A stretch of 61,014 nt of DNA, taken from the NCBI GenBank assembly GCA_027082775.1, contig JALWUI010000112.1, positions 1 to 61,014 of the forward strand, given 5' to 3'. The translations under genes and the position numbers were made by a program. The stretch is from Candidatus Kapaibacterium sp. Its GTDB lineage: Bacteria > Bacteroidota > Ignavibacteria > Kapaibacteriales > WFXC01. The notes beneath the pieces were generated by a model. The model ran no database searches, was not told the origin of the DNA, and saw only the letters and a list, made by a program, of their open reading frames with translations. Positions 2,733 to 45,589 of the stretch are shown one piece after another; the stretch's first letter is position 1, and every line of letters begins with the position of its first letter.

Positions 2733-5700
2733 TTACTTCACAATGAGCATTTGCCGCGTCAACCGAACCGGTCCAGCACTCAGCGTGTAGAAGTATGTGC
2801 CGCTGGAGAGGACCGTGTTGCGCAGATCGAATTTCACCTGCTGCCAGCCAGCAGCAACCGTCCCTTCGTAGAGCGTTAACAGCTCACGTCCATATCCATC
2901 GCTGATGGTCAGCTTCACATATGTTGCTTTCGGTACATAGAACCGAATGACCGTTCGCGTCTCAAATGGATTCGGATTGTTCTGTTCCAGAATAAATCCA
3001 CTGGCTGAACTTCGCTCGTCAACCGCCACATTCGGATTGAAGACGATCGTTACCGTATCAGACACAACCTCGCCACATTCGCCTGTGATCACACACCAGT
3101 ATTGCCCTTCAACGCCTGACTGTCCGAAGAGCGGTAACTCTGGCGATGTAGCACCACTGATCGGTTGTCCATCTTTGTACCATTGATATGTCAGCGTGCC
3201 TTCACCCTCTGCAGCAACTCGAATCGTATCCCGCTCATTTACAGTCAGCACCGTATCATCTGACAATGTTGGTTGCTGGGTAATAACGGTTTCTTTCTTC
3301 AGCGAAACCGTTACCGTTTCGCTGGTCGTCACGCCACATTCATTTGCAATTTCCACCCAATAATCTCCAGCATCGCTCATTGTTGCAGAGGTCGTCACTT
3401 CCAGCGTTGCGCTGGTTGCTCCCGTTATCGGCTGCCCATCTTTGTACCACTGATACGTCAGCGTTGGATCATTCGGGTCATCCACTGCAACATCCAGCGC
3501 TACAGCCTCACCCGGACAGACACTCTGCGACTGCGGTTGCGTTGCGATAACCGGTGCTGTCTTAACGGTAAGATGCGCATTCGCAGAATTAACCGTCACG
3601 CCATTGACGATGTCGGTAATCTCCACATAGTAATCCCCTTCGTCAGCAGTTGTGACGTTGGTCAGCGTCAGCGTAGCCGCTGTTGCGCCTGCAATTGGAC
3701 TGCCGTCCTTGTACCACTGGTACGTCAGGATTGCATTAGGTGCGATGGAATGTGCCTGCACGGTAAAGGTCACATCGCTGCCTTCGCATACCGTCGTATC
3801 CTGAGGCTGCTGGGTGATTTCAATATCCGGAATCAGAATGGTGATGGATCCACGATCTGAGGTAGCATCACCACACTCCGCACTGACGACCACATAGTAG
3901 TCATTCCCAACATCTGCCTGGGTCACGTTGCGGATCGTCAGGACATTGGATTGTGATCCGGTAATTCGTCCATCATCTTGCAACGGCGTATTTCCACGAT
4001 ACCACTGGAAGGTAGCCGTTGCCAGATCCTGTGCGTTCGTATTCGCCCGGAACACCACCGTTTCACCCGGGAACACCACGTGATTCTTCGGATCTGCCAG
4101 CGAAACCTGCGTCGGCGGATTGACGAACACCTTCGCTACCGCAGAGGCAACAGGACCGCAATAGCCGGTGACCTCACACCAGTAATCCCCGCTATGTCCA
4201 TACGTTGCAGGCGAAATGGTCAGGATTCGACCCGTTGCGCCTGGGAGCGGCACACCGTCTTTGTACCACTGGTATTGCAGATCCGTCTGTCCCGTTGGCG
4301 GCGTTCCTGTCGCTTCCACTTCTAACTGGAAGGTACCGCCAACACATACGCCAACATCCTCCGGTTGTTTTGTGATCGACACCGGCGTGTGCACGGTCAA
4401 CTGTGCCGGATTAGAAGTCACTGCTGGATCACAAACACCAGAGACAATAACCCGATAGTATCCTTCATCACTGTATTGAGCACTGGCAAGCGTAAAGGTT
4501 GCAGCATTCGCCCCTTGAATATCCTGCCATGTCTGTCCATCTGCACTGTACTGCCACTGGTACATAATGCCGGTACCACTGGCGACAACAGAAAAGCTTA
4601 CCTGATCACCCAAGCAGACTACCTGACTGGCCGGATGCTGGGAAATCCGTGGTTTCGTGTTGACTGTCAACACTATGGAACTGGTAACATTTGGCGGACA
4701 GTAGCCAGAAACGACAACCTGATACTCGCCTGCCTGACTCGGCGTGATAGCCGGAAGATTCAGGGTAGCGCCCATACCCACCAACTGTCCATCTTTGTAC
4801 CATTCATAAGACAGGTCGTCTCCGGTTGCGGTCGCCGTAAGGACCACATCTGTTCCTTCGCAAATCTCGGTATTTGGATCGGCTGTCACCGCTGTAATCA
4901 CAGGTGGATATTTCACCGTCAACGTAGCCTGTGCTGTTGCTACTCCACACGTTCCGGTAACCTTCACTTCGTACGTACCTTCGTCAGCATCCGTAACATT
5001 TTGCAATGTAATCGTATTCACACCCGAAGCGATCAAATTCCCATCCTTATACCACTCATAATCAATGCCTGTGCCGGTCGCCAGCGCTGTAAAGGTAACG
5101 TCAGCGCCAACACAGACGACCTGCGATACCGGTGGCTGTTGAATCACCGGCGGTTGATTCACAACCACAGCTACTGTATTCGAGGTTGCCGGCTGATTAC
5201 AGATATTGGACACCACCACAAAGTAGAATCCTTCATCCGCTTCCTGAGCGTTCAGCTTCGTATAGGTACTCTGCGTTGCGCCCGGAATGGCAACCGCATT
5301 CCCCTGCCCGTCATACTTGTACCATTGGTAAGTCAATCCTGTACCCACAGCCTGCACACTTAACGTAAAGCTCTGTCCTGCGCACACCGCCACTCCCTGC
5401 GGTTGTTCCGTAATCTCTGGCAATGCATAGAAGTCCAGGCGTGCCGGATTGGTATAGACCGTTCCACACGGCGTCGTATACGCCGCACGGTAATAATTGC
5501 CATCATCTGTCGGTTGCGCTGTGACGGTCAACGTGTTGGTCTGGGATCCACTGATATGCCCCGGTGCATCGACCAAATCCGTCCACGTAGCACCCCCATC
5601 CGTGCTCACCTGCCACTGCACACTGAGCGGCGTCTGCGGCGTTCCTACCTGTGCACTGGCAGTATATACCGCATCATCACCAGCACAGACGGTCAGATTC

Positions 5701-8700
5701 TGCGGATGGGTCAGATTCTCTGCCAGCGTGTAAATCGTCACGGTGACGCCCTGCGAAACATCCGTACCGCAGACATTGCTATACACAACCCGATACTGGT
5801 ACTGGTTAATCGTGCGATCGACATTTGTCAGCGTCAGCGTCGGATTGGTTTCTCCAACCAGGTCTGTCCACGTAGCACCACCATCGGTGCTCACCTGCCA
5901 CTGCGCCTGCGGTGCTGGCTGACCACTGGCTTGACTGGTGATAACAATGTCTGTCCCTTCACACGCCGGTGCTGGCGTCTGCGGCTGTTGCGTAATAACC
6001 GGCGCTGTATTGACAGTCACTTGCGCCGAATTCGAAATTGCCGGCTGATTACAAATGTTCGATACGATGACTCGGTAGTATCCTGCATCGCTGGTTGCTG
6101 CGCTATTTACACTATACGTCGAGTTAGTTGCTCCCGTAATATCTACCCACGTCACATTGTCACTGGAGTACTGCCATTGATATGTCAGTCCCGTACCACT
6201 TGCCTGTACACTCAGCGTGAACGGATCGCCCTCGCAAATGGTCACATCCTGCGGATGCTGCGTAATGTCAGGCAATGCATAGAAATTCAATGTCGCTGCA
6301 TTGCTGAAGACATCACCACACTGCGTTGTAAACTTCGCCCGATACTGATTGCCATCGTCACTTTGCTGAGCAGTAACCGTCAGGGTAGAAGTTCCGGAGC
6401 CACTAATGTGCCCTGCAACATCGCTCAGATCTGTCCAGCTCGTTCCATTATCAGTACTCACCTGCCACCGTATCGTAAGCACTGTCTGCGGCGTTCCCAC
6501 TTGTGCCGTTGCGGTAAAGACTGCATCATCACCAGCACAAACAGTCTGATCAGAGGGATGCGTCAGATTTTCTGCCAATGTGTAGACGGTCAGCGTAACG
6601 GCATTGGACGTTACCGTTCCACACGCATTGGTCCATTCAACTCGATATTGATACTGATTCAAACTCCGGGTTACACCGGTCAACATTAACGAAGCGGTAT
6701 TTGCCCCTGCAATTGCTGTCCAGCTTGCTCCTGCATCAGTGCTTACATACCACTGCGCAGTCGGTGCTGGATCTCCAGTTGCCTGACTACTGAAGGTTAC
6801 CGTTCCATTCTCACAAACACTTTGATCCGTTGGCTGCTGGGTGATCGTCGGCGCACTCTGCACGGTCACCACCACCTGATCACTGGCGGTACAGCCTTTG
6901 CTGTCCGTTACCGTTACCGTGTAGGTATACGTCCCGGCTGCATTCAATGTCACCGTCGGATTCGCCGCCGTCGGATCACTTAACCCGGTCGTCGGACTCC
7001 AGTTGTACGTGTATGGCGCTGTCCCACCACTGGCGGTCGGATTGCCACCTAAGGTTGCTGTCGCCCCAGCACAGATTGTTACATCTTGCCCCGCATCCGC
7101 CACCGGGTTCGGATTGACCGTTACCACCACCTGATCACTGGCGGTACACCCTTTGCTGTCCGTTACCGTCACTGTGTAAGTGTATGTCCCGGCTGCATTC
7201 AATGTCACCGTCGGATTTGCCGCTGTCGGATCATTCAACCCGGTCGTCGGACTCCAGTTGTACGTGTATGGCGCTGTCCCACCACTGGCGGTTGGATTGC
7301 CACCCAAAGTCGTACTTCCACCCTCGCATATCTCCTGATCCAACCCCGCATCCGCCACCGGGTTCGGATTGACCGTTACCACCGTCGTCGTCGCGCTGGT
7401 ACATCCATTTGCATCTTCAACAAAAACATAATAGGTGTGTGTTCCAACAGATGGGGAAGTCGTCAAACTGGTCCCTGTTCCTAAAACAGGTCCCTGGTCA
7501 TTACCTAAGTACCACGTAATTGCATACGGCGAAGTGCCGCCAGTAACGGTAACCGACAGCGTCGTACTACTCCCATCGCAGATCTCTGTTGAGTTAAAAG
7601 CAGCCGTTAATACCGGAGCATCATATGCTGTTACGGTTACCGTTGCAGTACTGGTCCCACATCCATTCCACAACACAACTTCGTAAACAGCCTGACCGGG
7701 ACTAGTCACATCAATGGTCAGCGTTTGCGTATACTGTCCCGTAAAATTCCACAAAGTTCCAGTCACCTGCGACCACGTGACCGTCTGGAAATTAATTCCT
7801 CCCACGGACAACTGTACCTGCGTATCTCCATAGAAGCATAAGAACTCATCCTGCGGTGCAGACGTGATCTCTGGTGGAGCTGTGACTGTAAGACTGGTAC
7901 TACCGCTGATAACAGTCGCACAGGCATTACTCGCTACAATCCGATAGATGTAGTCACCATCTCCGGTTTGCACATTGTACAGGGTAAAGTTCACCGTTCC
8001 CGGAGAAGTTGTCAATGTCGTGGTTGCCACATCATTCCACGGACCAGACGGTGTTGCAATATCCTGCCGTTGCAACGTAAAAGTGATGGGAGCTGTACCT
8101 GTATAATTGGAACTAAACGTTGCATCCTGTCCGACACACACATCGGGATCGACTGGATCGGTCAACGTTGGATTGAACCACACGGTTAATTGTGCAGAAT
8201 TCGACGTCGCCGTTGCCCATGTGGAGCTGACTTCACAGCGATAGAATCCCGCATCGTTCCCATCGATGGCTGTCAGCGTCAAGGTTGCAGCCGTTGCGTT
8301 CGCAATGTTACTCCACGTCGTTCCATTCGCTGAGTACTGCCATTGATAGGTATACGGACCGCCAATGGTTCCCACGGAAAAGGTTACATCATTTCCTTCA
8401 CATTCCGTCACATCCTGTGGCTGCTGCGTAATCGTGGGAAGTCCAATCAGTCGGCTGGTCGGCTGCTGCAAGCCGAAGTTGCTGGGGGTACAGTTGGAAC
8501 TACAGTAAGTTAAACTAATGGGTGTCTGGTTTGGCTCCTTATGGGCAACAGCAGAAGCGCTGATATTGAATTGCAACTGATCTAATTGCGTCCCTCCTCC
8601 ACTTTTAATTCCCCACCGATAGGTTGCAATATACACAGTTCCGGTTGTTGGTCCAGGATTAAAGAAGAAGTTCGATGGGGTAATATTAATTGAAACCGTA

Positions 8701-9029
8701 TTGATCCCGTTAAAAGTCTGTGTCATTGGTATATAATCCCCCGAATTGTATTCGGGATTCGGATTATACGGAGTGTTGAAGGTACTACCATCCAGCGCTG
8801 CCGAGTTAAAATCTATAAACAGGTTTGCTCCATATAATCGCAGCGGATTATTGGCGTCCGGGATAGTCATCCACAATTCAGCATAGTATACTCCATTATC
8901 CGCCCACCGCTTGCCAATGAAAAATTCCACCCGATTATTCCCATAAGCTGCTGTAGTCTCCATAAACAAATACACAAACACACTCGTGCACATCACAGCA
9001 AGTTGTGACAGGGTCATCATCCGTTTCAT
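2733..9029 (-). CDS. 2098-aa secreted Ig-repeat surface protein with T9SS type-A C-terminal sorting domain
   Basis: Signal peptide MKRMMTLSQLAVMCTSVFVYLFMETTAAYG. N-terminal cohesin-like module (..LYGANLFIDFNSAALDGS..). Roughly 20 I-set-like Ig repeats (C..G..V.F.V...G..L.YQW......W..I.GAT..T..L......D.G.Y) and two 85-aa PKD/SprB-like repeats. The last 89 aa (nt 2736-3002), FILEQNNPNPFETRTVIRF...SSGTYFYTL...RQMLIVK, fit the Por/T9SS CTD pattern. Confidence 0.9.
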   Translation of the reverse strand: MKRMMTLSQLAVMCTSVFVYLFMETTAAYGNNRVEFFIGKRWADNGVYYAELWMTIPDANNPLRLYGANLFIDFNSAALDGSTFNTPYNPNPEYNSGDYIPMTQTFNGINTVSINITPSNFFFNPGPTTGTVYIATYRWGIKSGGGTQLDQLQFNISASAVAHKEPNQTPISLTYCSSNCTPSNFGLQQPTSRLIGLPTITQQPQDVTECEGNDVTFSVGTIGGPYTYQWQYSANGTTWSNIANATAATLTLTAIDGNDAGFYRCEVSSTWATATSNSAQLTVWFNPTLTDPVDPDVCVGQDATFSSNYTGTAPITFTLQRQDIATPSGPWNDVATTTLTTSPGTVNFTLYNVQTGDGDYIYRIVASNACATVISGSTSLTVTAPPEITSAPQDEFLCFYGDTQVQLSVGGINFQTVTWSQVTGTLWNFTGQYTQTLTIDVTSPGQAVYEVVLWNGCGTSTATVTVTAYDAPVLTAAFNSTEICDGSSTTLSVTVTGGTSPYAITWYLGNDQGPVLGTGTSLTTSPSVGTHTYYVFVEDANGCTSATTTVVTVNPNPVADAGLDQEICEGGSTTLGGNPTASGGTAPYTYNWSPTTGLNDPTAANPTVTLNAAGTYTYTVTVTDSKGCTASDQVVVTVNPNPVADAGQDVTICAGATATLGGNPTASGGTAPYTYNWSPTTGLSDPTAANPTVTLNAAGTYTYTVTVTDSKGCTASDQVVVTVQSAPTITQQPTDQSVCENGTVTFSSQATGDPAPTAQWYVSTDAGASWTAIAGANTASLMLTGVTRSLNQYQYRVEWTNACGTVTSNAVTLTVYTLAENLTHPSDQTVCAGDDAVFTATAQVGTPQTVLTIRWQVSTDNGTSWTDLSDVAGHISGSGTSTLTVTAQQSDDGNQYRAKFTTQCGDVFSNAATLNFYALPDITQHPQDVTICEGDPFTLSVQASGTGLTYQWQYSSDNVTWVDITGATNSTYSVNSAATSDAGYYRVIVSNICNQPAISNSAQVTVNTAPVITQQPQTPAPACEGTDIVITSQASGQPAPQAQWQVSTDGGATWTDLVGETNPTLTLTNVDRTINQYQYRVVYSNVCGTDVSQGVTVTIYTLAENLTHPQNLTVCAGDDAVYTASAQVGTPQTPLSVQWQVSTDGGATWTDLVDAPGHISGSQTNTLTVTAQPTDDGNYYRAAYTTPCGTVYTNPARLDFYALPEITEQPQGVAVCAGQSFTLSVQAVGTGLTYQWYKYDGQGNAVAIPGATQSTYTKLNAQEADEGFYFVVVSNICNQPATSNTVAVVVNQPPVIQQPPVSQVVCVGADVTFTALATGTGIDYEWYKDGNLIASGVNTITLQNVTDADEGTYEVKVTGTCGVATAQATLTVKYPPVITAVTADPNTEICEGTDVVLTATATGDDLSYEWYKDGQLVGMGATLNLPAITPSQAGEYQVVVSGYCPPNVTSSIVLTVNTKPRISQHPASQVVCLGDQVSFSVVASGTGIMYQWQYSADGQTWQDIQGANAATFTLASAQYSDEGYYRVIVSGVCDPAVTSNPAQLTVHTPVSITKQPEDVGVCVGGTFQLEVEATGTPPTGQTDLQYQWYKDGVPLPGATGRILTISPATYGHSGDYWCEVTGYCGPVASAVAKVFVNPPTQVSLADPKNHVVFPGETVVFRANTNAQDLATATFQWYRGNTPLQDDGRITGSQSNVLTIRNVTQADVGNDYYVVVSAECGDATSDRGSITILIPDIEITQQPQDTTVCEGSDVTFTVQAHSIAPNAILTYQWYKDGSPIAGATAATLTLTNVTTADEGDYYVEITDIVNGVTVNSANAHLTVKTAPVIATQPQSQSVCPGEAVALDVAVDDPNDPTLTYQWYKDGQPITGATSATLEVTTSATMSDAGDYWVEIANECGVTTSETVTVSLKKETVITQQPTLSDDTVLTVNERDTIRVAAEGEGTLTYQWYKDGQPISGATSPELPLFGQSGVEGQYWCVITGECGEVVSDTVTIVFNPNVAVDERSSASGFILEQNNPNPFETRTVIRFYVPKATYVKLTISDGYGRELLTLYEGTVAAGWQQVKFDLRNTVLSSGTYFYTLSAGPVRLTRQMLIVK
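6866..7375. repeat. 255-nt tandem duplication inside the 2098-aa gene (two PKD/SprB-like domains)
   Basis: The motif CCGCATCCGCCACCGGGTTCGGATTGACCGTTACCACC starts at 7091 and 7346 (period 255 nt = 85 codons). About 190 nt of each unit are nearly identical and about 45 nt are divergent. Confidence 0.85.
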
Positions 9030-9103
9030 GGCTGCTATCCTCTTCCTGTTTTTATTGTTGAACTATTGCGTCCTAAAAAAGACTTCCACAGGCTTTTTGG
9101 GGC

Positions 9104-9640
9104 CTATGGCTCTGGCACTTGTCCTGGATTATTCAACCCGTTGTTCTGCAAAACCTGGAGTACATCCGTTATATTGACTCCCTGATCATTATTGGCATCG
9201 GCTGCCCGCAACGCATAGCTGTTGCCAACCTGAACCAGGGCGAAATTCCCATTGTACACATTGGCAGGATTGCGAAAGTCCCAGCTAACTGTTGCCCCTG
9301 AACTAATGGCTACGGCTGTTGAAGAAGCCACGGGCAAATGACTTCCGCACCGAACGACAATCCAATAGTTACCGCTGTTCAGGTTTTGAAACAATGCCGT
9401 TGCGGTTCCTGTTGTACTCAACATCACCGCTTTTCGATCCACTAAAGTTGACGTTTGTAATTGTGCACCTGAGCGTAACTCCACCGCTATTGGAACAGGC
9501 AAATGTATAGAGCCATTCCAAAATCCTTGCATATACGCTTGCACATGCACTGTGGTTATTGTTTGTGCCGATGTCCAATGTAGGGCTATAATACCCAACG
9601 TCACTACCCACTGCCAGAGAATCGCTTTGCGACGGCCCAT
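9104..9640 (-). CDS. 178-aa secreted protein consisting only of the island's shared C-terminal (dockerin-like) module
   Basis: Signal peptide MGRRKAILWQWVVTLGIIALHWTSAQ. The remainder aligns by eye, at about two-thirds identity, to the last 152 aa of the neighbouring 687-aa protein (AVELRSG.QL.TSTLVDR.AVM.STT...GNYW.V.RCG..LP...NNPGQVP.P). Confidence 0.8.
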   Translation of the reverse strand: MGRRKAILWQWVVTLGIIALHWTSAQTITTVHVQAYMQGFWNGSIHLPVPIAVELRSGAQLQTSTLVDRKAVMLSTTGTATALFQNLNSGNYWIVVRCGSHLPVASSTAVAISSGATVSWDFRNPANVYNGNFALVQVGNSYALRAADANNDQGVNITDVLQVLQNNGLNNPGQVPEP

Positions 9641-9661
9641 TGCTCTTCCTTCGATAAATGT

Positions 9662-11725
9662 TTATGGAGCAGGAACTTGTCCCGGATTGTTTTGCCCATT
9701 ATTGCCCAACCAGATCAGGATGTCACTTACATTCACATTACGATCCCCATTGAGATCTCCAGTTCGCACATACCAAGTGCTACCTGATTGAGACAATGCC
9801 GCATTGCCATTAAACACATTTGCAGGATCTGTGAAATTCACATTGTAGGTATTTCCTGGCGACATTGACAGTGCAGTATTGGAACCAATAGGCAAATACC
9901 CTCCGCATCGAATTACCACCCAATAATTTCCAGCGGTAATCCCGGTAAACTCTGCTGTCGCAACAGCCGTGGTACTATGCATCACGGCAACGCGATCCAC
10001 GAGGGTAGAAGTCGATAGTTGAGAACCACTTCGCAATTCCACGGCAACGGGTACTGGTGTATGCACACTTCCATTCCACAATCCCTGGAAATACGCGGTA
10101 ACATTGACTGTTAACGTAATTGGTGTAACAGTCAACTGGGCTGTTGAACTAACGGTTCCACAATCCCCTGATACCAGTACTCGATAGTATCCGGCATCGC
10201 TGGGTTGTGCATTCGAAACCGTATAGCTAGCATTAGTTGCACCACTGATATCGGTAAAGGTCGTCCCATTCGTCGAAAACTGCCATTGATAGGACAGGTT
10301 CGACCCCACCGCCGTGACCGTAAAGGTTGTACTCTGCCCCTGAAGCACCGTTTGATCCTGAGGACCTGCGGTAATCTGGGTTGACTGCAAAATGGAAAAA
10401 TCACCATCCGAATCATCAAACCGCCCCGGTGTGCTTACATCTTCAATACGGATACGATAATTCGTACCAGCACTCAACGAATTGGAAATATTCCACACAA
10501 ATGATCCTGCTGGAGCCGGGGTCGAATTGGTCAACGTTGCTACCGTTGTTCCTCCCTGTAACAATGTAATTTTCACATTCGCAATATTTTGACTGCTCCA
10601 CGTAATCGTTGTAGAAGCTCCGGGACAGAAACTTTCCCCACCATTGGGATAGGTTACCTGTACAATAAACTGTGGTGGTTCGACAATGTAATTCGCATTG
10701 TCCGTTACATCCACGCTGTTATTCCACGGACTGACATTGGGACGGAAATAAAACAGGGAACTGGGAGTTCCTGAGGACACCCATTGGGGATTAACATCCG
10801 TTACGATCGTCCCAGAAGTTGCCCCGGTAATCTTGAAACGCCCAATCCATGTTCCATCTCCACTACTGGAGGCGCTTTCCATCTTTGTGTCGAACTCTGT
10901 TTGGTTCGCGGTGGTTGGAGCAGACAATGCAATTTGAATTTGATTACCACTCAATTGGGTATTGTAGGTATAGTAATTCTGCAATCTCGACGTCCCTGCC
11001 TGCACCAGGGAAATGGTGGGCGAGTTGAAATGTGTGTTGTCATAGGTCAAAACAAAATCGCAATCATCAATATAAAAGGTGGGCCCATCGGCGTCGGTCT
11101 GGCGAATATAAATGTCAAAGGTATATTCGTTGTTCAGCAACTCCTGATTCTTCACGATCACATCAAATTCTGGTCCCATCGAGACATTCGGCGGGGTCAA
11201 CAATGTTGTGTTTACCTGATAATCAATATTCCACCACGCATAAATCACCGTCGTATACAGCCCTGTTCCCCAGGCTAACCCTGCTGTTCCAGTATAATCA
11301 GTAATTCCACTGATTGTCAGAGTTCCCAGCTTATCACCACTGGCAGCATTCGTAATGGTAATACAGTTTGCCGTCGAGGGACTCACATTGAAGAAAATCT
11401 CTATGCCAACTGTTTTTTTCGGCGATGTATTGACAATAGCCGCATCAGCACCATAATTACTATTAAACAAATTGGTATTCAGACTGAACGTAGCAACGGG
11501 AGATGTCCATTTAGTATGGTCAAATTGAATATAAATGGAACAGTCCGTCAGATACATTGGATTGCTATTATCATCATTACGTAGATAAAGATCCATAATC
11601 AGCTCATCACCTACGATATGGGCGTTCTGAATCCAGAGCGTACCAACCGTTGACTGCGCAAACCCCTGAAAGCGGATCAAACCAATCAGCAATACTCCCA
11701 CCACGAAATGTTGCCACTGTTTCAT
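9662..11725 (-). CDS. ~687-aa secreted protein: two cohesin-like modules, Kre9/KNH-like Ig domain, one I-set-like Ig domain, shared dockerin-like C-terminal module
   Basis: The ORF track extends to a TTG at 11770, which lies inside the upstream terminator T-run. ATG at 11723-11725 gives the signal peptide MKQWQHFVVGVLLIGLIRFQGFAQ, preceded by AAGGGGA. Motifs: YLTDCSIYIQFDHTKWTSP, YIDDCDFVLTYDNTHFNSP, VTYPNGGESF..TITWSS...YRIRIEDVS, GDLNGDRNVNVSDIL, and the ending NNPGQVPAP. Confidence 0.85.
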   Translation of the reverse strand: MKQWQHFVVGVLLIGLIRFQGFAQSTVGTLWIQNAHIVGDELIMDLYLRNDDNSNPMYLTDCSIYIQFDHTKWTSPVATFSLNTNLFNSNYGADAAIVNTSPKKTVGIEIFFNVSPSTANCITITNAASGDKLGTLTISGITDYTGTAGLAWGTGLYTTVIYAWWNIDYQVNTTLLTPPNVSMGPEFDVIVKNQELLNNEYTFDIYIRQTDADGPTFYIDDCDFVLTYDNTHFNSPTISLVQAGTSRLQNYYTYNTQLSGNQIQIALSAPTTANQTEFDTKMESASSSGDGTWIGRFKITGATSGTIVTDVNPQWVSSGTPSSLFYFRPNVSPWNNSVDVTDNANYIVEPPQFIVQVTYPNGGESFCPGASTTITWSSQNIANVKITLLQGGTTVATLTNSTPAPAGSFVWNISNSLSAGTNYRIRIEDVSTPGRFDDSDGDFSILQSTQITAGPQDQTVLQGQSTTFTVTAVGSNLSYQWQFSTNGTTFTDISGATNASYTVSNAQPSDAGYYRVLVSGDCGTVSSTAQLTVTPITLTVNVTAYFQGLWNGSVHTPVPVAVELRSGSQLSTSTLVDRVAVMHSTTAVATAEFTGITAGNYWVVIRCGGYLPIGSNTALSMSPGNTYNVNFTDPANVFNGNAALSQSGSTWYVRTGDLNGDRNVNVSDILIWLGNNGQNNPGQVPAP

Positions 11726-11763
11726 TGATATCCCCTTTTTATCTGCTCCAACTTGTTTCGCAT

Positions 11764-11799
11764 AAAACAAAAAAGCAGTCGGGATTTCCCCGACTGCTT
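11764..11799 (-). terminator. Rho-independent terminator after the 6237-aa gene
   Basis: Stem GCAGTCGGG (11775-11783), 5-nt loop, CCCGACTGC (11889-11897 is wrong by 100; correct span is 11789-11797). On the minus strand it is followed by TTTTTTGTTTT. Lies 16 nt past the stop at 11814. Confidence 0.8.
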
Positions 11800-11813
11800 C
11801 CTCTTTTCTTGCC

Positions 11814-14800
11814 TTACGGCACCTGCGTTACTCTGAAGGCGTTGTTACGCGGCACGATACGGTCGGCAGCATTCACAATGCCATCCAAAGTAACATCAGT
11901 CACCAGATATCCTGTTTGTCCGGAGGCATTCCGCACTGCTACCCGATCAGCCGCATTGATAATACCGAAGGTCGAAGCAGCATCGCCAGCCACCATACCG
12001 TAGACCGACGGAGCAAGTCTCGGCAAGCCAACCATTGGCAACTGGCTCTGACTGTATGCTTTCGATTGCGATACGGTAAAGTCATACAAGGTCGAGCTGC
12101 CAGTGTTCAATGTCGTTGCCGAAGAACTCATAATCCACAGGTGGTTACGATGTTTGATCACAATGTAGTAATCATCTGCCGTGATCGAGCTAAACGCCAC
12201 CTGACTACTACCATCGAGATCGGTGATCGTTCCGGTTGTTGTGATAAATGCAGCCCGTTGCGCCACCGTCGTGGTCTTGCTATTCTTATCCCGCAATTCC
12301 ACAACAACCCAATCCACAGCGTTGTTTGGCACAATTACCACGCTCTCACCTAATCCATAAGGATCGGTCGTCGGCAGGAATCCATACTGATTCAGCAAGT
12401 TGTGCATCAATGCACCACTGCTCTGATCGAATGGTCCTTCAAGCACTGCCTTCACGTTCGCCACAACCGGCACGGCTGGCGTTTGCGTAATGCTCACCAG
12501 ATCCGCAATGTCACTATCATCTGCTGGGCTGGTAATATGTGCATAGAACTGATACACATCCGTACCGGCATTGTTACCAGAAGTATACCGGATGATGGCG
12601 GTCGTTCCATTATCAATCACGGTTGTGCTACCACCACCGGAATTATCGGTTTGGACATTGACGCTTACCGTTCCGACGGTGGTCAGGTTCCCGTTCGCAT
12701 CTCGTTTCACGACCACAAAGTCCGTTGTAAACCCACCAACCGGCACCGTCGCAGTCGTTGGCGTAATGGTCGACTGTGCAGCAACGGCTGGACCAGGTAC
12801 GACATCAAATACGGTCGAAATACCCGGATTGAGCCCGGTTGCCGCTGCTTCAAGGTAGTACTGTCCGGGACGATTGACGTTCACATTGGTGAACGGTATC
12901 GTTCCCGTTCCTGTTGTAACGGTATAATCAGCGCTCAGAACGCCCGTGCCGCTGATAGCAGTAAGTGAGAGTGTTACCGTTGTTGTGTAATTCGGCACCA
13001 GGTTGCCGTACTGATCCTGTACCTGCACTTCAACATCGAAGGTCGATGTTGCAGAAGTTTCGGTCGGCGGATTCACGCTGAACGCCAACTGCGATGCCGA
13101 TGCATTGGTCACAACGAACGGATCGGAAACAACGGCTGGCAGTATCGGCGTTCCTACCGTTTGAGCCCGCAGTGTATAGGTTCCTGCTTTCGTAAAGCTC
13201 ACACCACTGAAGCTGGCAACACCATTGACTGCGGTTGTAATGGAGACCAACTGTCCAACCAGTCCAGGATCTGGTGCAGTATTGATTTCCAGCTTCACAA
13301 TTGCTGTTGTTGGTACCGTATTGCCGCCGCAATCAACAATTGAAACGACCGGTTGCTGGACAATCGGCTGTCCCGCAATATTCGGTCCAACCTGTCCGGG
13401 TTGCGTTGTGAATACCAGTCCAACCGGATCACCAATCAGGATGCTAAACAGCGTCGAGGTCGTTGCAGTCAGTCCGGCAGAAGTTGCAGTCAGCGTATAG
13501 CCAGCACCGGCGGTACCGCAGATTCCTACGCCTGTAAAGGTTGCAATACCCAAGACGCTATTGACAGAGGTATTGCCCGTCAGGAAGCTACTACCACTGC
13601 TACTCAGATTGACCGTCACAACATCGGTCGTGTTCCGATTGCCGTACTGATCCAGTACCTCGACCGTGACAGTTGGCGAGAACTGATCACCAGATCGCGT
13701 ATCCGTCGGATTCTGGATGAACCGCAGTTGCGCTGGCACATCCGGAATCTGGTCAATGAAGAACGGCGATCCTACAATATGAGTTCCACCAATCTGCACA
13801 CTTACTGTCGGATCCTTCGCCGCATCGGTACCAGCAGTGTACGTGAAGGTTGCTGGACTCACACCTACTATGGTCGTCGGACTCAATGTTCCATCGCCAC
13901 CAACCTGACTAATCGTCACAGTTCCGTTGTCTGTGATATTTCCATACTGGTCACGCATCGTCACCGTAATTGGTGGCGTAGTTTGGCCAACAACCACCGT
14001 AGACGGCATACCTGTCACCGTCGATTTCGCCGGATCTGCCACATCCGGGATCTGATCGATGGTAAACGGCGATCCGACGATATCATTCCCACCAATCTGT
14101 ACATTGATCGTTGGATCCAGCGTTGCATTCGTTCCTGCCGTGTAAGTAAAGGTTGTACTGGCTGAGACGCCGCCTGTAAAGGTGGTAATGCTGAGCGTTC
14201 CATCACCACCTATCTGACTAATCGTCACGGTTCCGTTCGTCGTCAAGTTCCCGAACCGGTCACGCATAGTAATTGTAATTGGCGGGGTGGTCTGTCCAAC
14301 CACCACCGTTGCTGGCATACCTGTTACCGTCGACGTGGTGTGATCTGCCACATCCGGAATCAGATCAATCGTGATCGGCGAATTCTGAACGTGTCCTGCC
14401 GGCAACGTGACGTGGATGATAGCATCGATAGAAGCATTCGTACCACCAGTGTACCGGAAGGTTCCGGTAGTCACACCCGTCATTGTAATCACTGAGCCAC
14501 TACCTGTAAAGCCAGTGGAGGTTGGTTGCAGACTACCACCTCCCTGGACGATCTGCACCGTCACCGTTCCATTCGTTGTCGGATTGCCGAACTTATCAAA
14601 CATCTGGATGGTAATATCACCCGTTTGCGTGCCAACAACAAGGGTCGCTGGCGCACCGGAGACAACTGATGTTGCCGTCGATGCCGGTCCGGCAATATTG
14701 GTGATGGTACAGGTGGAAGCACCCAGCGTCGTAATCAACGATCCGTTGACCCGGGCACGCACAATTGTCGCTCCCGTACTTGTCGGCGCTGTGTAAACTG

Positions 14801-40352: not shown

Positions 40353-40564
40353 AGTCGGCGAGCTCAAACGCGGCAATCAGCACGCCTGGCACGGTGTGCT
40401 CAGAAGTCAACGGCTGTTTTTTTATCTTCTGCCTTGCTACGCTGCAGTGGACAGCGAGCCCGTGGTGACTTTCCCATCTCTGCTCCTGCACCTTGCAGCG
40501 ATCACCCGTAGTTGAGTTCAACAAATTGCCCGATTTGACTCAACCTCTGCCTTCTGTCCCGACC

Positions 40565-40572
40565 TATTTTTG
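40565..40572 (+). promoter_or_regulatory. candidate -7 box TATTTTTG upstream of the tail-fibre-like gene
   Basis: The TAnnTTTG match would put a transcription start near 40579, which argues against the ATG at 40580 and for the ATG at 40619. Confidence 0.3.
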
Positions 40573-40618
40573 CAGTTGGATGAAAAAGGAAGTGGTGCAA
40601 ATCAAAGAGGGACTCACG

Positions 40619-43600
40619 ATGAAAGAAACGGTACGGTACACGTTTTTGCTGCTGATTCTGGGCACTGTTTCTCTGTGGTCGCAAAGTTTTCCTTCTAAGA
40701 TCCCTTTCCAGGGAATGCTCACGACAAGCGGCAACGTCGCTGTTCCAGACGGCACCTATCAACTGACTTTCAAACTGTACACCACCAGTTCCGGTGGTAC
40801 TGCGCTCTGGAGTGAAACGCAAAATGTAACGGTTCGGAACGGTCTGTTCTCCGTCCTGTTGGGATCGAATACGGCGCTCAACTTAGACTTTCGGCAGCAA
40901 TACTACCTGGGCATTACAATTGGCAACGGCAACGAACTATCCCCGCGTATTCCGCTGGGCGTTGCTCCCTACAGCTTCCGCTCTCAATGGGTAGAAACCG
41001 TGACCACCGGCAATATATTTCCACTCTTTACGGCTGGAACGGGAATCACGCTCAGTGCTTCAGCAACAAACCTGACGATCTCAGCACAGGCTGATCAACC
41101 ATTATGGAATGCTGCTCAATTGCAGGGACGTCCCATTGCAACGGCTGCACCCAGCACTGGACAGGTGCTTCAGTGGAGCGGTTCGCAATGGCAGCCAGCA
41201 ACGATCGGTGGCGGTGGAACTCAGAATACCGGCGGGGACTTAACCGGACCGGTGACCAACGCTACGGTGATTGCCCTTCGAGGCTATCCGATAGCCAACA
41301 CGGCGCCCAGCACCGGACCGGTCTTGCAAGGGAATGGCCCCCAATGGCAACCGGCAACCGTCAGCGGAAGCGGTGGGACCAGCGGAACAGCCGGATGGGC
41401 AACCAGTGGCAATCTGATTTCCAGTAACGAATTTCTGGGCACGTTGAACAACGCACCACTTCGCATTCGGGTCAATAATCAGCAGATGTTTCAGTGGAAC
41501 ACCAACGGGAGTATCCAACGAGACGCTGGCGGAAATGCTCGCGGAAAGTATGCAATCGATCTGCAAATGGTGCGAACCAGCAACAACGATGTTGCCAGTG
41601 GAGACTATAGCGTCATTGGTGGCGGACGGCGCAATCAGGTCTCAGGAGACTACTCGACAATTAGCGGCGGATATTTCAACACTATCGAGAGCAACCGCAG
41701 TACCATTGGAGGTGGCTACTCACACGATATTTTCTACAATGCGGATTACGGAACGATCGGCGGAGGACGAAGTAACGAACTTCGTTCGCCGTACACAGCC
41801 ATCGGTGGTGGATGGGGCAATGCTATACAATCAGAATCTGAAAACAGTACCATCGGTGGCGGCAAATACAATGACATCGGCACTTACAGTTGGAACAGTA
41901 CCATTTCAGGTGGTTACTACAATAGCATTGCAGATTTCGCTCCACGGTCAACTATCAGCGGTGGCGAACGTAATGATGTTGGAGAAGATGCTGATGGCGC
42001 AACCATTGGCGGCGGCTACAACAATGATATTTTGGCTGGAAGCGATTATGCAACGATTAGCGGTGGATACTACAATGACATTGATACCTCTGCTGTTGCA
42101 GCAACCGTTGGCGGCGGAGACAACAACAACATTGGCAAACATTCCACATCCGCAACGATCGGCGGTGGTGAAGGAAATGACATCGGAATGCTCTCTCCTG
42201 GCGCCACGGTCAGTGGTGGTCTGGGCAATGACATTGGCAATTCTGCTGGTGGAGCAACCATCAGCGGCGGCGAATACAACAACATTGGAAATCTTGCGCA
42301 ATGGTCAACGATTGGCGGCGGAAGTGTTAATGAAATCTTATCCAATGCCAGAGGCGCAACAATCAGCGGCGGCGCTTTAAACACGATTAAAGCCAACACC
42401 CAATTTTCCACCATTAGCGGTGGCGAACACAATATTATTTCCAGCGACCACGGCACTATCGGCGGTGGAAATTTCAACCGAATCTATGGCGATTTCGCTG
42501 TCATCGCCGGCGGCGGTGGAAGTAGCATCTCTGACTCCAATTCCATCACTGCCGACTGGGGCGCTATTTTGGGCGGTAAGCGACACCGCATTCAGGCTCC
42601 TTATGGCACAATCATCGGCGGACTGCAAAACACCATCTACGGCAACGCAACGGCTGCTACCATTACAGGCGGACAAACAAATCTCGTTGCCACGGGTTCT
42701 CAATACAGTGTAATCGGCGGCGGCAATGCGAATGAGATTCAAGCCAACGCATCGTATGGAGTGATTGGTGGTGGCGATCGTAACGCCATTCGCTCTTCCG
42801 CTTCCTACGCTGCCGTTGGAGGTGGTCGCTTGAACACCATCACGGGTAGCTACGGAAGCATCAGCGGCGGCGATAGCAACACTGTTGCGGAAACCTATGC
42901 CAGTATTGGCGGTGGATACAAAAACCTGGCGCAGCAGCAAGGGGCAAGAATTGGTGGTGGTGGCTACAACAAAGCACGGGGGAATTTCGCTGTCATCGCT
43001 GGCGGCGGCGGAAGTAGTGCGGCGGACTCCAACTCCATCACTGCTGATTGGGGTGCAATTCTGGGCGGGAAGCAACACCGCATTCAGTCACCATACGCCA
43101 GCATTGGCGGGGGCAAGCACAACCTTATTTACCCCTCCGCAACTGCTGCAACGATCGGTGGTGGAGAAAACAATACGATTGTTACCAGTGCCCAGTTGAG
43201 TACTATTGGGGGAGGTTATGAGAATACTATCAGAGCCTCCGCTTCGTATAGCACCCTGGTCGGCGGCAAATACAACACCATTCAGGAAAACTCCAATTAC
43301 GGTTTCATCGGTGGTGGAAATGCTAACACCATTGGATTCAGCAGTCCAGGTGCGACTATTGCTGGTGGATACAGCAATTCGATCAATCCTCTCGCCGAAT
43401 TTGCCTTTATTGGTGGCGGATATTACAACCAAGCGGTTGCTCCCAATGCAACGATTGGAGGTGGTGGTTTCAATCGAGGGGATGTCGCGTGCTTTGTCGG
43501 TGGCGGACTGGGAAACACCACCTATGGTGAATACGACGTTATCGGGGGCGGATATAACAATTCTATCTCCAGCCCCTCTGGCACAATCGGTGGCGGAAAA

Positions 43601-45589
43601 TACCACACCATCTTTTCCCACAGTACTTCCTCGACAATTGCTGGTGGAAGGTATAACATCATCGGCAACAATTCACCTCTCGGTTTCATCGGCGGCGGCT
43701 ATCACAATGTGATCTTCGCCAAGTATGGCGTGGTCGGTGGCGGTGGCGGTCCCAGCTTTCGAGATTCCAATGCCGTCGTCGCTGACTGGGGTGCAATTCT
43801 GGGCGGACAGCACAACAAAGTATCTGGCACTGCAGGGAGCATCGTCGGAGGCGATGGCAATCTAGTTGCTGGCAACTATGCTCACATCGGCGGCGGATAT
43901 AAGGACACGGTCGCCGGTTCGTACGCAGTCATCAGCGGTGGAAACTCCAATAAGGCTTTAGCAAACTACAGCTTCATTGGCGGCGGGAATAGCAACACAG
44001 CATCGGGTCAATATGCTGCTATCGCTGGTGGGGCATCTAATGAAAGTGCGGGAAGTTACAGCAGTGTTACCGGAGGATATTCCAACAAAGCCACTGGCAA
44101 CTATAGCGGCGTGAGTGCCGGATCGACCAACGAAGCAACGGGAAGCTATAGCGCCGTTGGAGGCGGGTACAGAAATCAGGCAACCGGAAGCTATAGTCTC
44201 ACCGGTGGCGGTGCTTACAACAAAGCTGGTGGACAGTATAGCGCTGCGGTCGGTGGATATCGCGATACAGCATCCACTGATTATGCTTTCGTCGGTGGCG
44301 GTTCTTATAACGCTGCCTCTGCTCCCTTCGCCTTCGTTGGCGGTGGATCGGTCAATAAAGTTTCGGATTCGGCAAGTACTATCAGCGGTGGGTTCAGTAA
44401 TACAGTCTCTGCCCGCTACGCCACGATTAGTGGGGGACGTTCAAACCGGATATCCAATTCCTATGGGACCATTGGTGGCGGCAAGGAAAATCTTGCGTCT
44501 GCTCTGTACGCAACGGTAGGCGGTGGATACCGCGACACCGCTTCTGGTGCCTACACAGTTGTCAGCGGTGGAGCGGATAATACTGCCTCTGGAAGTCATA
44601 GCACTATTGGTGGTGGGCTGAGCAATGCTGCTTCGGGCAATGCAGCAGCAATTGGTGGCGGTGCATCCAACGCTGCCGCTGGTGCATACGCTGCCATTGC
44701 TGGCGGCATCCACAATGTTGCACCTGGGGAACGATCTGCTATTGCCGGTGGCGACTCCAATCGTACTGCCGGCAACTACAGCGGTGTGCTCGGCGGATTC
44801 GCCAATCAGGCGACGGGCAACTATAGTGCCGTGGGCGGTGGAGCATTGAACAACGCTGCTGGAGCTTACAGCGTCGTTGCCAATGGACAATCGAACACTG
44901 CTGCCGGAGCCTACAGTTGGGTCGGTGGCAAGAGTATGTACCTCTCAACTTCCGCAACGCATACCTTCGTATGGGGATACGCCTCAGCGACGTCGGCGAT
45001 TACGACTGCCAATGCTTTCCTGATCGCCCCCTATGGACAGACCTTTGTTGTCGGAATCAACGTCTCTTCGCCAACCTATGCACTGGAACTTCCCAACAAT
45101 ACGACCAATACCATTGGCAAGGCGCGAGCAAATGACTGGGTCACGTATTCGGACGATCGGATCAAAAGCCGTATCCGTCCTATTGACAGTGCGCTGGCGG
45201 TCGTTCTCCGAATGCAACCGGTACACTACTATCAGCATAGTACTCGCTGGGAAAACGGCAAATTAGTGGTATCGCCAACGGGTGAAGATCGCTACGGATT
45301 TTTGGCACAACAACTGGCACAAGTGGTGCCTGAAGCTGTGGAAGCACCGCAGAATGCATCGGATCTGTGGAGCATCAGCTACCTACAACTTATTCCCATT
45401 CTGACGGCGGCACTTCAGCAACAGCACAGTATCATCGAACAACAGCAGGAAACCATCGAGCAACTCCAGCAAAAAATTTTCCGTCTGCAAGAGCAGCTTG
45501 TCCGCTTTGTTACCATGCAGCAGTACATCCTCTCAATCGTGCGCCCAAGCCAACGCGTTCAGTATGGTGCAGTAGGATCGCAACGGTAA
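40619..45589 (+). CDS. ~1656-aa tail-fibre-like surface protein: N-terminal fibre domain, about 75 YadA-head-like GG..N repeats, peptidase-S74 intramolecular-chaperone C-terminus
   Basis: The ORF opens at 40493. ATG 40619 (preceded by AGAGGGA) gives the signal peptide MKETVRYTFLLLILGTVSLWSQS. Twin motif L.G.PIA..APSTG.VLQ..G.QWQPAT. Roughly 14-15-aa repeats S.IGGG..N.I......STI(G/S)GG from about 41590 to 44930. The C-terminus NDWVTYSDDRIKSRIRPI...YGFLAQQLAQVVPEAV...ISYLQLIPILT followed by a coiled coil fits the S-D-x-R-x-K Ser/Lys dyad of endosialidase/tail-fibre chaperone domains (Ser codon 45149-45151, Lys codon 45164-45166). Confidence 0.85.
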   Translation: MKETVRYTFLLLILGTVSLWSQSFPSKIPFQGMLTTSGNVAVPDGTYQLTFKLYTTSSGGTALWSETQNVTVRNGLFSVLLGSNTALNLDFRQQYYLGITIGNGNELSPRIPLGVAPYSFRSQWVETVTTGNIFPLFTAGTGITLSASATNLTISAQADQPLWNAAQLQGRPIATAAPSTGQVLQWSGSQWQPATIGGGGTQNTGGDLTGPVTNATVIALRGYPIANTAPSTGPVLQGNGPQWQPATVSGSGGTSGTAGWATSGNLISSNEFLGTLNNAPLRIRVNNQQMFQWNTNGSIQRDAGGNARGKYAIDLQMVRTSNNDVASGDYSVIGGGRRNQVSGDYSTISGGYFNTIESNRSTIGGGYSHDIFYNADYGTIGGGRSNELRSPYTAIGGGWGNAIQSESENSTIGGGKYNDIGTYSWNSTISGGYYNSIADFAPRSTISGGERNDVGEDADGATIGGGYNNDILAGSDYATISGGYYNDIDTSAVAATVGGGDNNNIGKHSTSATIGGGEGNDIGMLSPGATVSGGLGNDIGNSAGGATISGGEYNNIGNLAQWSTIGGGSVNEILSNARGATISGGALNTIKANTQFSTISGGEHNIISSDHGTIGGGNFNRIYGDFAVIAGGGGSSISDSNSITADWGAILGGKRHRIQAPYGTIIGGLQNTIYGNATAATITGGQTNLVATGSQYSVIGGGNANEIQANASYGVIGGGDRNAIRSSASYAAVGGGRLNTITGSYGSISGGDSNTVAETYASIGGGYKNLAQQQGARIGGGGYNKARGNFAVIAGGGGSSAADSNSITADWGAILGGKQHRIQSPYASIGGGKHNLIYPSATAATIGGGENNTIVTSAQLSTIGGGYENTIRASASYSTLVGGKYNTIQENSNYGFIGGGNANTIGFSSPGATIAGGYSNSINPLAEFAFIGGGYYNQAVAPNATIGGGGFNRGDVACFVGGGLGNTTYGEYDVIGGGYNNSISSPSGTIGGGKYHTIFSHSTSSTIAGGRYNIIGNNSPLGFIGGGYHNVIFAKYGVVGGGGGPSFRDSNAVVADWGAILGGQHNKVSGTAGSIVGGDGNLVAGNYAHIGGGYKDTVAGSYAVISGGNSNKALANYSFIGGGNSNTASGQYAAIAGGASNESAGSYSSVTGGYSNKATGNYSGVSAGSTNEATGSYSAVGGGYRNQATGSYSLTGGGAYNKAGGQYSAAVGGYRDTASTDYAFVGGGSYNAASAPFAFVGGGSVNKVSDSASTISGGFSNTVSARYATISGGRSNRISNSYGTIGGGKENLASALYATVGGGYRDTASGAYTVVSGGADNTASGSHSTIGGGLSNAASGNAAAIGGGASNAAAGAYAAIAGGIHNVAPGERSAIAGGDSNRTAGNYSGVLGGFANQATGNYSAVGGGALNNAAGAYSVVANGQSNTAAGAYSWVGGKSMYLSTSATHTFVWGYASATSAITTANAFLIAPYGQTFVVGINVSSPTYALELPNNTTNTIGKARANDWVTYSDDRIKSRIRPIDSALAVVLRMQPVHYYQHSTRWENGKLVVSPTGEDRYGFLAQQLAQVVPEAVEAPQNASDLWSISYLQLIPILTAALQQQHSIIEQQQETIEQLQQKIFRLQEQLVRFVTMQQYILSIVRPSQRVQYGAVGSQR

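Follow-up and report, generated by a model that had tools for sequence, protein, structure and literature searches.

The window considered here is a stretch of 61,014 nucleotides from Candidatus Kapaibacterium sp. (assembly GCA_027082775.1, contig JALWUI010000112.1, positions 1 to 61,014), and the element in question is a C-terminal protein module encoded in three neighbouring genes on its minus strand. Four tightly spaced, co-directional genes encode, in order, a giant adhesin, a 687-aa protein, a 178-aa protein and a 2098-aa Ig/PKD-rich protein, with intergenic gaps of 88, 21 and 74 nt (Table 1). The giant protein has a signal-like segment after Met75 and Invasin/Big-like repeats; its orthologues in relatives are 5583–6625 aa long. 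The 687-aa protein consists of a signal peptide, two copies of an unannotated domain (the N-domain), a Kre9/KNH Ig domain, an I-set Ig domain and a short form of the module; its orthologues are 96%, 85% and 73% identical, those of the 178-aa protein 93%, 66% and 57%. The 2098-aa protein ends in a type A C-terminal domain (CTD) of the type IX secretion system (T9SS), which TIGR04183 scores at 25.2 bits against a cut-off of 23 and which served as a positive control. The four-gene order, including the position of the 2098-aa gene, is conserved on four other contigs (L092–L095). Judged from its modelled fold, the module of the first three products is most likely a docking unit of the X-module–dockerin (XDoc) kind, and by sequence it is a member of no curated family.

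An earlier, sequence-only reading of the window had described these three stretches as copies of one module, and both pairwise comparison and an independent profile bear this out. All three were located on the minus strand where that reading had placed them, and their termini read as it gave them (..NNPGQVPEP in the 178-aa protein, ..NNPGQVPAP in the 687-aa protein and ..NNAFRVTQVP in the giant). Residues 30–178 of the 178-aa protein and 554–702 of the 702-aa reading of its neighbour align without gaps and are identical at 89 of 149 positions (60%, E 2e-60). Over the core of its final ~217 residues, the giant is 30–32% identical to the two short copies (E 7e-10 and 3e-5). A profile of 12 metagenomic members, none of them from the source genome, matches the giant tail over its whole length and the short copies at positions ~92–216 only (scores in Table 1). 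The claim of a single architecture therefore stands for the module as such and needs amending in one respect: the copies in the 178-aa and 687-aa proteins are trimmed versions. Their DNA is 58% identical over 149 codons, dS is saturated and the frames are intact; an assembly artefact or a recent duplication is thereby rejected, and the old duplication kept in frame that had been proposed from roughly 60% identity is upheld. At least four or five further copies lie elsewhere in the genome (contigs C130, C176 and C207; C100 and C129, which carry fragments; and C78, where the copy is internal and degenerate).

Table 1. Features of the module gene cluster; positions are those of the window.
Feature	Coordinates	Strand	Basis or remark
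Giant adhesin gene, 6237 codons	11814..30527	-	Heads the co-directional cluster; open reading frame (ORF) list
Long-form module of the giant, beta-sandwich "X" part, module residues 1–159	11991..12467	-	Profile 229 bits; AlphaFold2 (AF2) pLDDT 96
Long-form module of the giant, dockerin part, two F-hand repeats	11841..11990	-	Direct reading; AF2 helices 172–180 and 200–208
Terminal tail of the giant, NAFRVTQVP-COOH	11817..11840	-	Family motif; ordered in the model, V213 in a beta-bridge
687-aa protein gene	9662..11725	-	ATG at 11725; a TTG ORF (702 aa) starts at 11770
N-domain 1 of the 687-aa protein, unannotated, candidate receptor	11192..11656	-	Local hidden Markov model (HMM) of the P0161 family, E 1e-36
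N-domain 2 of the 687-aa protein	10685..11182	-	Local HMM of the P0161 family, E 2.5e-45
Short-form module of the 687-aa protein	9665..10120	-	Profile positions 92–216, 36.5 bits
Free-standing 178-aa gene (P0001): signal peptide (9554–9640) and short-form module, nothing else	9104..9640	-	
Short-form module of the 178-aa protein	9107..9553	-	Profile positions 92–214, 59 bits
Fourth cluster gene, 2098-aa Ig/PKD-rich protein with T9SS type A CTD (~2748–2975)	2733..9029	-	

The module belongs to a large family. A profile of six copies from the genome (the three in the window and those on C130, C176 and C207), searched against 1.84 billion representative proteins, retrieves 16,313 clusters (50% identity) at E<=1e-3 and 3,269 at E<=1e-30. 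Among the 150 best matches, 120 finish 0–1 residue after the module, 25 carry a tail of 2–30 residues and 5 continue for more than 30 residues; several contain 2–5 tandem copies. The module is thus C-terminal in most of these matches rather than internal. The terminal motif, whose conservation had been left to be established, proves to be a family feature of the form [ST]-Q-[VIL]-P, within a tail consensus NN-x-[G/F/N]-[R/K]-x-[T/S]-Q-[V/I/L]-P to which one further residue is often added. QVP closes 57 and VPN 16 of 116 terminal modules, and 62 of 79 reference-genome loci end in [VIL]P plus 0–3 residues when ends are taken from stop codons rather than gene calls. One subfamily (P0074, P0100, P0146, P0133 and L100:2007-5972) has an acidic/hydrophobic extension of 14–20 residues beyond QVP (e.g. 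..TQVP|APVSSPIIEIVKENN and ..TQVP|TPVDDPEIEILNKL).

The hosts, named from the labels of metagenome-assembled genomes (MAGs), include Ignavibacteria, Melioribacteraceae, Bacteroidales, Calditrichia, Rhodothermales, Chlorobiota and Saprospiraceae. The spread is patchy across Bacteroidota and other MAGs of the Fibrobacterota–Chlorobiota–Bacteroidota (FCB) group: of the 31 genomes examined from the window's order, 27 have the module, against 13 of the 121 in a phylum-wide sample (E<=1e-25). Its cargo ranges over S8 and M12B peptidases, GDSL lipases, beta-helix, FG-GAP and LamG proteins, phosphoesterases and giant adhesins, an M12B protease being a cargo elsewhere in the source genome. Small module proteins (L045, L054, L077, C130:1143-2600 and P0013) share a ~55-aa unannotated segment after the signal peptide, with the consensus ..SLSPxVIxSxGGY....LSWT[IL]GE......LTQGFxQP... 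Another member, encoded on the minus strand at C176:7162-9282, is a secreted protein of ~700 aa with an unannotated N-terminal part of ~480 aa and a full module ending in ..RRSLVP; most genomes of the order (G001–G030) have one orthologue of it (692–810 aa). A 727-aa paralogue-like gene lies upstream of it, and an OmpA-like gene and an ORF with a CTD-like tail, recognised by eye, lie downstream.

Conservation within the family identifies a characteristic core. Near-invariant positions are VDW, R, YY..(V)..HRNHL..MS and YDF, and two GDxNxDGxIxxxD loops come next; the family consensus and the long form contain two F-hand loops, each followed by a helix. In the giant, VDW falls at module residues 51–53, the arginine at 59 and HRNH at 106–109. 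Its first dockerin loop, GDAASTFGIINAAD (window 11940–11990), is degenerate, having lost the N3 and D5 ligands and gained one residue, and the second, DVTLDGIVNAAD, is canonical; calcium would therefore probably be bound by the second F-hand only. A scan of the three copies and 10 typical relatives with Pfam-A and NCBIfam places no model over the beta-sandwich core. Dockerin_1 is a weak positive in 8 of 81 members (E<1e-3), and a few exceed the Pfam threshold of 22.9 bits (P0047 at 23.8 and P0011 at 25.1). A profile search of the family against the PDB returns type I dockerin segments only (E>=0.0015) and nothing for the sandwich. The loops that had been called dockerin-like from the letters are accordingly an F-hand pair in the family, and their sequence match in the PDB is the type I dockerin.

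The predicted fold provides the strongest clue to identity. An AF2 model made from an alignment of 84 sequences (from the window, the genome and fetched loci) is a single compact domain with pLDDT 96 and pTM 0.92; it supersedes an earlier run with the genome's six copies alone (pLDDT 60). In this model the sandwich packs on the dockerin as one unit, which is the defining property of an XDoc, and the last block of the tail is ordered (pLDDT 94). The ten best Foldseek matches in the PDB are all XDoc chains of type II cohesin–dockerin complexes from C. thermocellum and A. cellulolyticus (4fl4, 2b59_B, 4u3s_B, 3kcp, 4wi0_B, 5g5d_B, 5m0y_B and 5k39_B among them), with probabilities of 0.99–1.00, E values of 1e-4 to 8e-3 and target-normalised TM scores of ~0.3–0.64. 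Below them the list contains insignificant transthyretin-like matches only. The structural alignments have 12–16% identity, and sequence homology to X-modules or type II dockerins was not found. XDoc dyads tie the cellulosome to surface scaffoldins, and the X-module steadies the calcium loops and touches the cohesin (PMC5141474). A match to an already characterised domain of unrelated role had been named as grounds for giving up the idea of an attachment module; the module does resemble a characterised domain, but the role of that domain is attachment itself.

The likeness to the clostridial type II XDoc (C. thermocellum ScaA/CipA and CipB, A. cellulolyticus ScaA; 2b59, 4fl4, 5k39, 5m0y, 5g5d, 4u3s, 4wi0; PMC5141474) covers the C-terminal place, the beta-sandwich tightly packed on a calcium dockerin with two F-hands, the status of sole significant structural match and, as a prediction here, the cohesin-mediated fixing of large assemblies to the cell surface. 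The differences are equally clear: beyond the low identity, the sandwich has no sequence relation to X-modules, is ~50 residues larger and has its own VDW and HRNH motifs, and the module adds the conserved [ST]QVP tail and a trimmed one-loop variant. It is found in diderm FCB bacteria that possess a T9SS, whereas the clostridial dyads belong to Firmicutes with S-layer homology (SLH) anchors, and its cargo consists of adhesins, proteases and lipases, not a cellulase scaffoldin. With the type I dockerin (PF00404) it shares the duplicated 22-residue F-hand and the DxNxDGxxNxxD loops, the family's only match at the sequence level; unlike that domain, most members, including the three window copies, fall below the Pfam cut-off, and the dockerin is always fused to the sandwich and tail. 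The T9SS type A CTD, itself a beta-sandwich, also stands at the C-terminus of large adhesins and enzymes of the same organisms, and is apparently interchangeable with the module (687-aa protein versus its counterpart on contig C179). It differs in that its model misses the module, in size and in fold, and in that the module may be internal, tandem or coexistent with a CTD.

Whether the module sorts or attaches was left undecided by the sequence-only reading, which proposed a sorting or attachment signal of a different type. Attachment fits the XDoc-like structure. A new sorting signal fits poorly, given internal and tandem copies and co-occurrence with CTDs. The absence of a recognisable T9SS CTD is itself confirmed: neither type A (TIGR04183/PF18962) nor type B (TIGR04131/PF13585 CHU_C) models match the 178-aa protein, the 687-aa protein or the giant tail at E<=1. 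Of 40 module ends that are not terminal, 16 retain [ST]Q[VIL]P where the domain stops, and internal or tandem copies that keep QVP occur in P0008 (three times), P0011 and P0128; one internal boundary in P0008 reads ..KSTQVPN|DLQVYVNLKVFLEG... In P0019, two internal modules precede a bona fide T9SS CTD (E 1e-13). A sortase- or exosortase-type signal (LPXTG, PEP-CTERM) was considered and rejected, as the proteins stop 0–2 residues past QVP and have no hydrophobic/basic tail. These observations, together with the ordered tail in the model, disfavour a signal that requires a free C-terminus; the module is probably a docking domain and not a cleaved or new sorting signal. Dockerins are C-terminal domains, and the position of the module is best understood in that light, QVP being the final element of the structure. 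The degenerate internal copy on C78 belongs to a 2048-aa protein (4798-10941, plus strand; ~2000–2200 aa across the order) of scaffoldin-like, all-in-one architecture, comprising LamG-like regions, the degenerate module (..GNYWAVVDHINHLPVMS.. and two F-hands), a weak cohesin match and a T9SS type A CTD.

Candidate partners come from two sources, the first being the N-domain. This family (~160–180 aa) typically occurs in ~390-aa proteins that combine an N-domain, an FN3-like domain and a T9SS type A CTD; profile searches give it no Pfam match and no PDB sequence relative. At 6 of the 79 module loci, the stop of the module gene is followed within ~70 nt by the start of an N-domain gene on the same strand. 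Across 697 kb of flanks there are 7 N-domain genes against 0.76 expected from this genome's density (P ~1.5e-5). Reciprocally, a module gene lies immediately upstream of all 4 sampled N-domain+CTD genes (E 1e-65 to 1e-90). Module genes thus often directly precede a gene for an unannotated N-domain with a T9SS CTD, an arrangement reported here for the first time. The window repeats this conserved pair, with the giant's module followed by an N-domain gene, but its N-domain protein ends in a trimmed module, not in a CTD. Apart from the two copies in the 687-aa protein, the source genome has N-domains in two proteins only (contigs C179 and C145), both with CTD-like C-termini; one tail gives a Por_Secre_tail match of 22 bits (cut-off 27) and the other was recognised by eye. 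The C179 protein has the layout of the 687-aa protein, two N-domains followed by Ig. Two further links were tried: a domain of the C78 protein (E 3.7e-4), considered as a bridge in asking whether the N-domains are cohesins, does not join the N-domain HMM; and a by-eye likeness between the N-domain and both a 416-aa ORF next to the C176 gene and the C78 domains was dropped after the HMM gave it no support.

Cohesins are the second candidate. The source genome encodes about 50–69 type A CTD proteins, the SprA translocon and, by an order-specific cohesin profile, 8 cohesin proteins, at least 5 of which have the cohesin directly ahead of a T9SS CTD. A Pfam cohesin stands on the same polypeptide as the module in 7 of 81 members. 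At one locus (L099:728-9137, NCBI GCA_964563225.1), five genes encode a beta-helix protein with a CTD, a cohesin–module protein (385 aa), an N-domain protein with a CTD (390 aa), a cohesin protein with a CTD (258 aa) and a second cohesin–module protein (381 aa); going by its predicted domains, this is a compact set of cohesins, dockerins and T9SS anchors. Dockerin-bearing enzymes and a cohesin scaffold with a T9SS CTD have been inferred from genomes of a Cloacimonadota lineage, Ca. Stygibacter (PMC8542988). Those systems resemble the present one in having signal-peptide enzymes with C-terminal dockerins and a CTD-anchored cohesin scaffold; they differ in that their account draws on InterPro dockerin and cohesin calls only and mentions no X-type sandwich, QVP tail, N-domain partner or free module. 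The setting of T9SS-anchored receptors is thus sketched in the literature solely via generic calls, and the module family is a new, very large and so far uncatalogued XDoc variant.

The short forms deserve separate consideration. Missing from them are the VDW-bearing N-terminal insert, an entire F-hand and HRNH, in whose place the two copies read CGSH and CGGY; one canonical loop with D-x-N-x-D...D ligands and the NN..QVP tail are retained. The loop is DLNGDRNVNVSD (9722–9757) in the 687-aa protein, with NNPGQVPAP at 9665–9691, and DANNDQGVNITD (9164–9199) in the 178-aa protein, with NNPGQVPEP at 9107–9133. A deletion running from one dockerin repeat to the other would be expected to give such a form. 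Purifying selection acts on the short forms, with a dN/dS of 0.16 in the 178-aa gene and 0.058 in the 687-aa gene. The pair is kept on four other contigs down to 57–73% identity and is missing in the two other species of the genus. In a sister species (L101, G001:C4:44000-55200), a 1401-aa ORF takes the place of the pair behind the giant gene, so that the adaptor-like and free-module genes are a lineage-specific insertion; a convergent 1412-aa cohesin-bearing gene lies ~5.6 kb off in that locus. Proteins made of a signal peptide and a module, without cargo, recur in unrelated loci (L057, L068 and L043).

Taken together, the reading preferred here, at a probability of about 0.6, is that the shared module is an XDoc-like docking domain that tethers secreted cargo to surface receptors. 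The module would be a beta-sandwich of ~150 residues (VDW..VELR, YY.V..HRNHL..MS, YDF) packed on a two-repeat calcium dockerin and closed by the tail. After Sec export, it would tether its cargo non-covalently to receptor domains of surface proteins anchored by T9SS type A CTDs; this cargo would be the 6237-aa adhesin here, the M12B protease elsewhere in the genome, and S8 peptidases, lipases, beta-helix and FG-GAP proteins in relatives. The receptors may be the cohesins that stand just ahead of T9SS CTDs or the N-domains of the N-domain, FN3 and CTD proteins encoded downstream of module genes, and the arrangement would be a diderm counterpart of cellulosome anchoring. The 687-aa protein looks like an adaptor, since it has two N-domains and, in place of a CTD, a trimmed one-loop module: it might take the giant's module and itself be docked elsewhere through its own tail. 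The 178-aa protein, a trimmed module alone, might occupy the receptor sites of that tail; a role as cap or competitor, which had already been suggested from the letters, is plausible. What the analysis shows directly is the homology, the size of the family, the position, motif and fold of the module, the gene pairing and the purifying selection; calcium binding, the partners, the adaptor and cap roles and the route across the outer membrane are inferred.

Several observations weigh against the docking reading. A docking role gives no account of how CTD-less cargo, including the 6237-aa protein, would cross the outer membrane. Query-normalised TM scores are just 0.38–0.49, values that are low because the module sandwich is ~50 residues larger than clostridial X-modules, and the Pfam dockerin model has no match at E<=1 to the three window copies. 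The degenerate loop of the giant, and the single F-hand and lost VDW and HRNH of the short forms, may mean different binding or none. On the partner side, Pfam cohesin and module show no clean correlation across 31 relatives, and some module-rich genomes of the order have zero Pfam cohesin matches. N-domain neighbours occur at a minority of module loci, and what makes the N-domain a candidate receptor is gene adjacency; in hhalign comparisons with 11 Pfam-positive cohesins of relatives it reaches probabilities of 0.5–7.5%, with the first strands only aligned.

The problem of outer-membrane passage leads directly to explanations in which the module serves export. Under a rather unlikely two-partner scheme, the N-domain would be a non-cohesin receptor whose CTD-bearing protein both pipes CTD-less cargo through the T9SS in piggyback fashion and holds it on the surface, with the 687-aa protein as adaptor and the 178-aa protein as regulator. 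It also appears unlikely that the module is in essence a T9SS export device, either a third class of C-terminal signal or a means of riding on a CTD partner encoded next door. Module proteins have a signal peptide and no CTD, and they must leave a diderm cell. Moreover, the module occupies the place of the CTD, the 687-aa protein being the C179 architecture with its CTD-like end (by eye) exchanged for a short module, and cargo–module genes form tight pairs with N-domain+CTD genes. Genes for type B CTD proteins precede their cognate PorP/SprF-like gene, which this pairing recalls. In the sample of 121 genomes, SprA is found in 13 of 13 module-positive genomes and the module in 0 of 25 SprA-negative ones, and SprA is present in 5 of 6 further module genomes. 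This co-occurrence is nevertheless weak (P=0.04) and confounded, since the 25 SprA-negative genomes all come from one family (f25; genomes of 1.8–2.8 Mb, with neither T9SS translocon nor module). The module is also missing in 83 of 96 SprA-positive genomes and present in one MAG of unknown completeness (G147) without SprA. Against an export device stand, too, the tandem and internal copies and the members that also have a normal CTD, as well as a fold that is XDoc-like and not the 7-strand sandwich of the CTD; in addition, we know of no T9SS piggyback export.

Two other explanations dispense with a protein partner or with function in the short forms. That the module binds a non-protein ligand (a lipopolysaccharide or capsule sugar, or a substrate) through a VDW/R/HRNH face, with the dockerin part as a calcium-stabilised structural element that has no cohesin partner, is distinctly unlikely. 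It would suit the pattern of conservation, which is strongest in the sandwich and not in the dockerin helices, the weak likeness of the sandwich to transthyretin and carboxypeptidase-regulatory folds, and the loose relation between cohesin and module presence. The significant structural matches are nevertheless all XDoc, with no carbohydrate-binding module or lectin among them; cohesin and module occur on one polypeptide and in common clusters; and short forms devoid of VDW and HRNH are still under purifying selection. That selection likewise makes it very unlikely that the short forms are decaying remnants without docking function and the 178-aa gene a by-product of partial duplication. Their losses and their absence from the genus's two other species would be expected of remnants, but reading frames, signal peptide and the NNPGQVP(A/E)P tail are intact down to 57% identity on the four other contigs, and the remaining loop retains its canonical ligands.

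Elsewhere in the window, a 1698-aa ORF on the plus strand (40493–45589) has a C-terminal Peptidase_S74 domain (endosialidase intramolecular chaperone), a feature of phage tail fibres and of some surface fibres. Between 36219 and 40128, genes for a SpoIIE-type phosphatase, an FGE-sulfatase/PKD protein and a cytochrome c554-like protein stand amid housekeeping genes and are unrelated to the module.

Many large adhesins and enzymes of T9SS bacteria carry no recognised T9SS sorting domain. The docking reading offers an annotation hypothesis for thousands of C-termini now labelled "hypothetical". It would carry the cohesin–dockerin principle, known from the cellulosomes of Gram-positive bacteria, over to FCB diderms, where T9SS-CTD proteins would be the anchors. 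The conserved gene pair, the adaptor-like 687-aa protein and the cargo-less 178-aa protein name specific protein pairs and a possible link to T9SS export.

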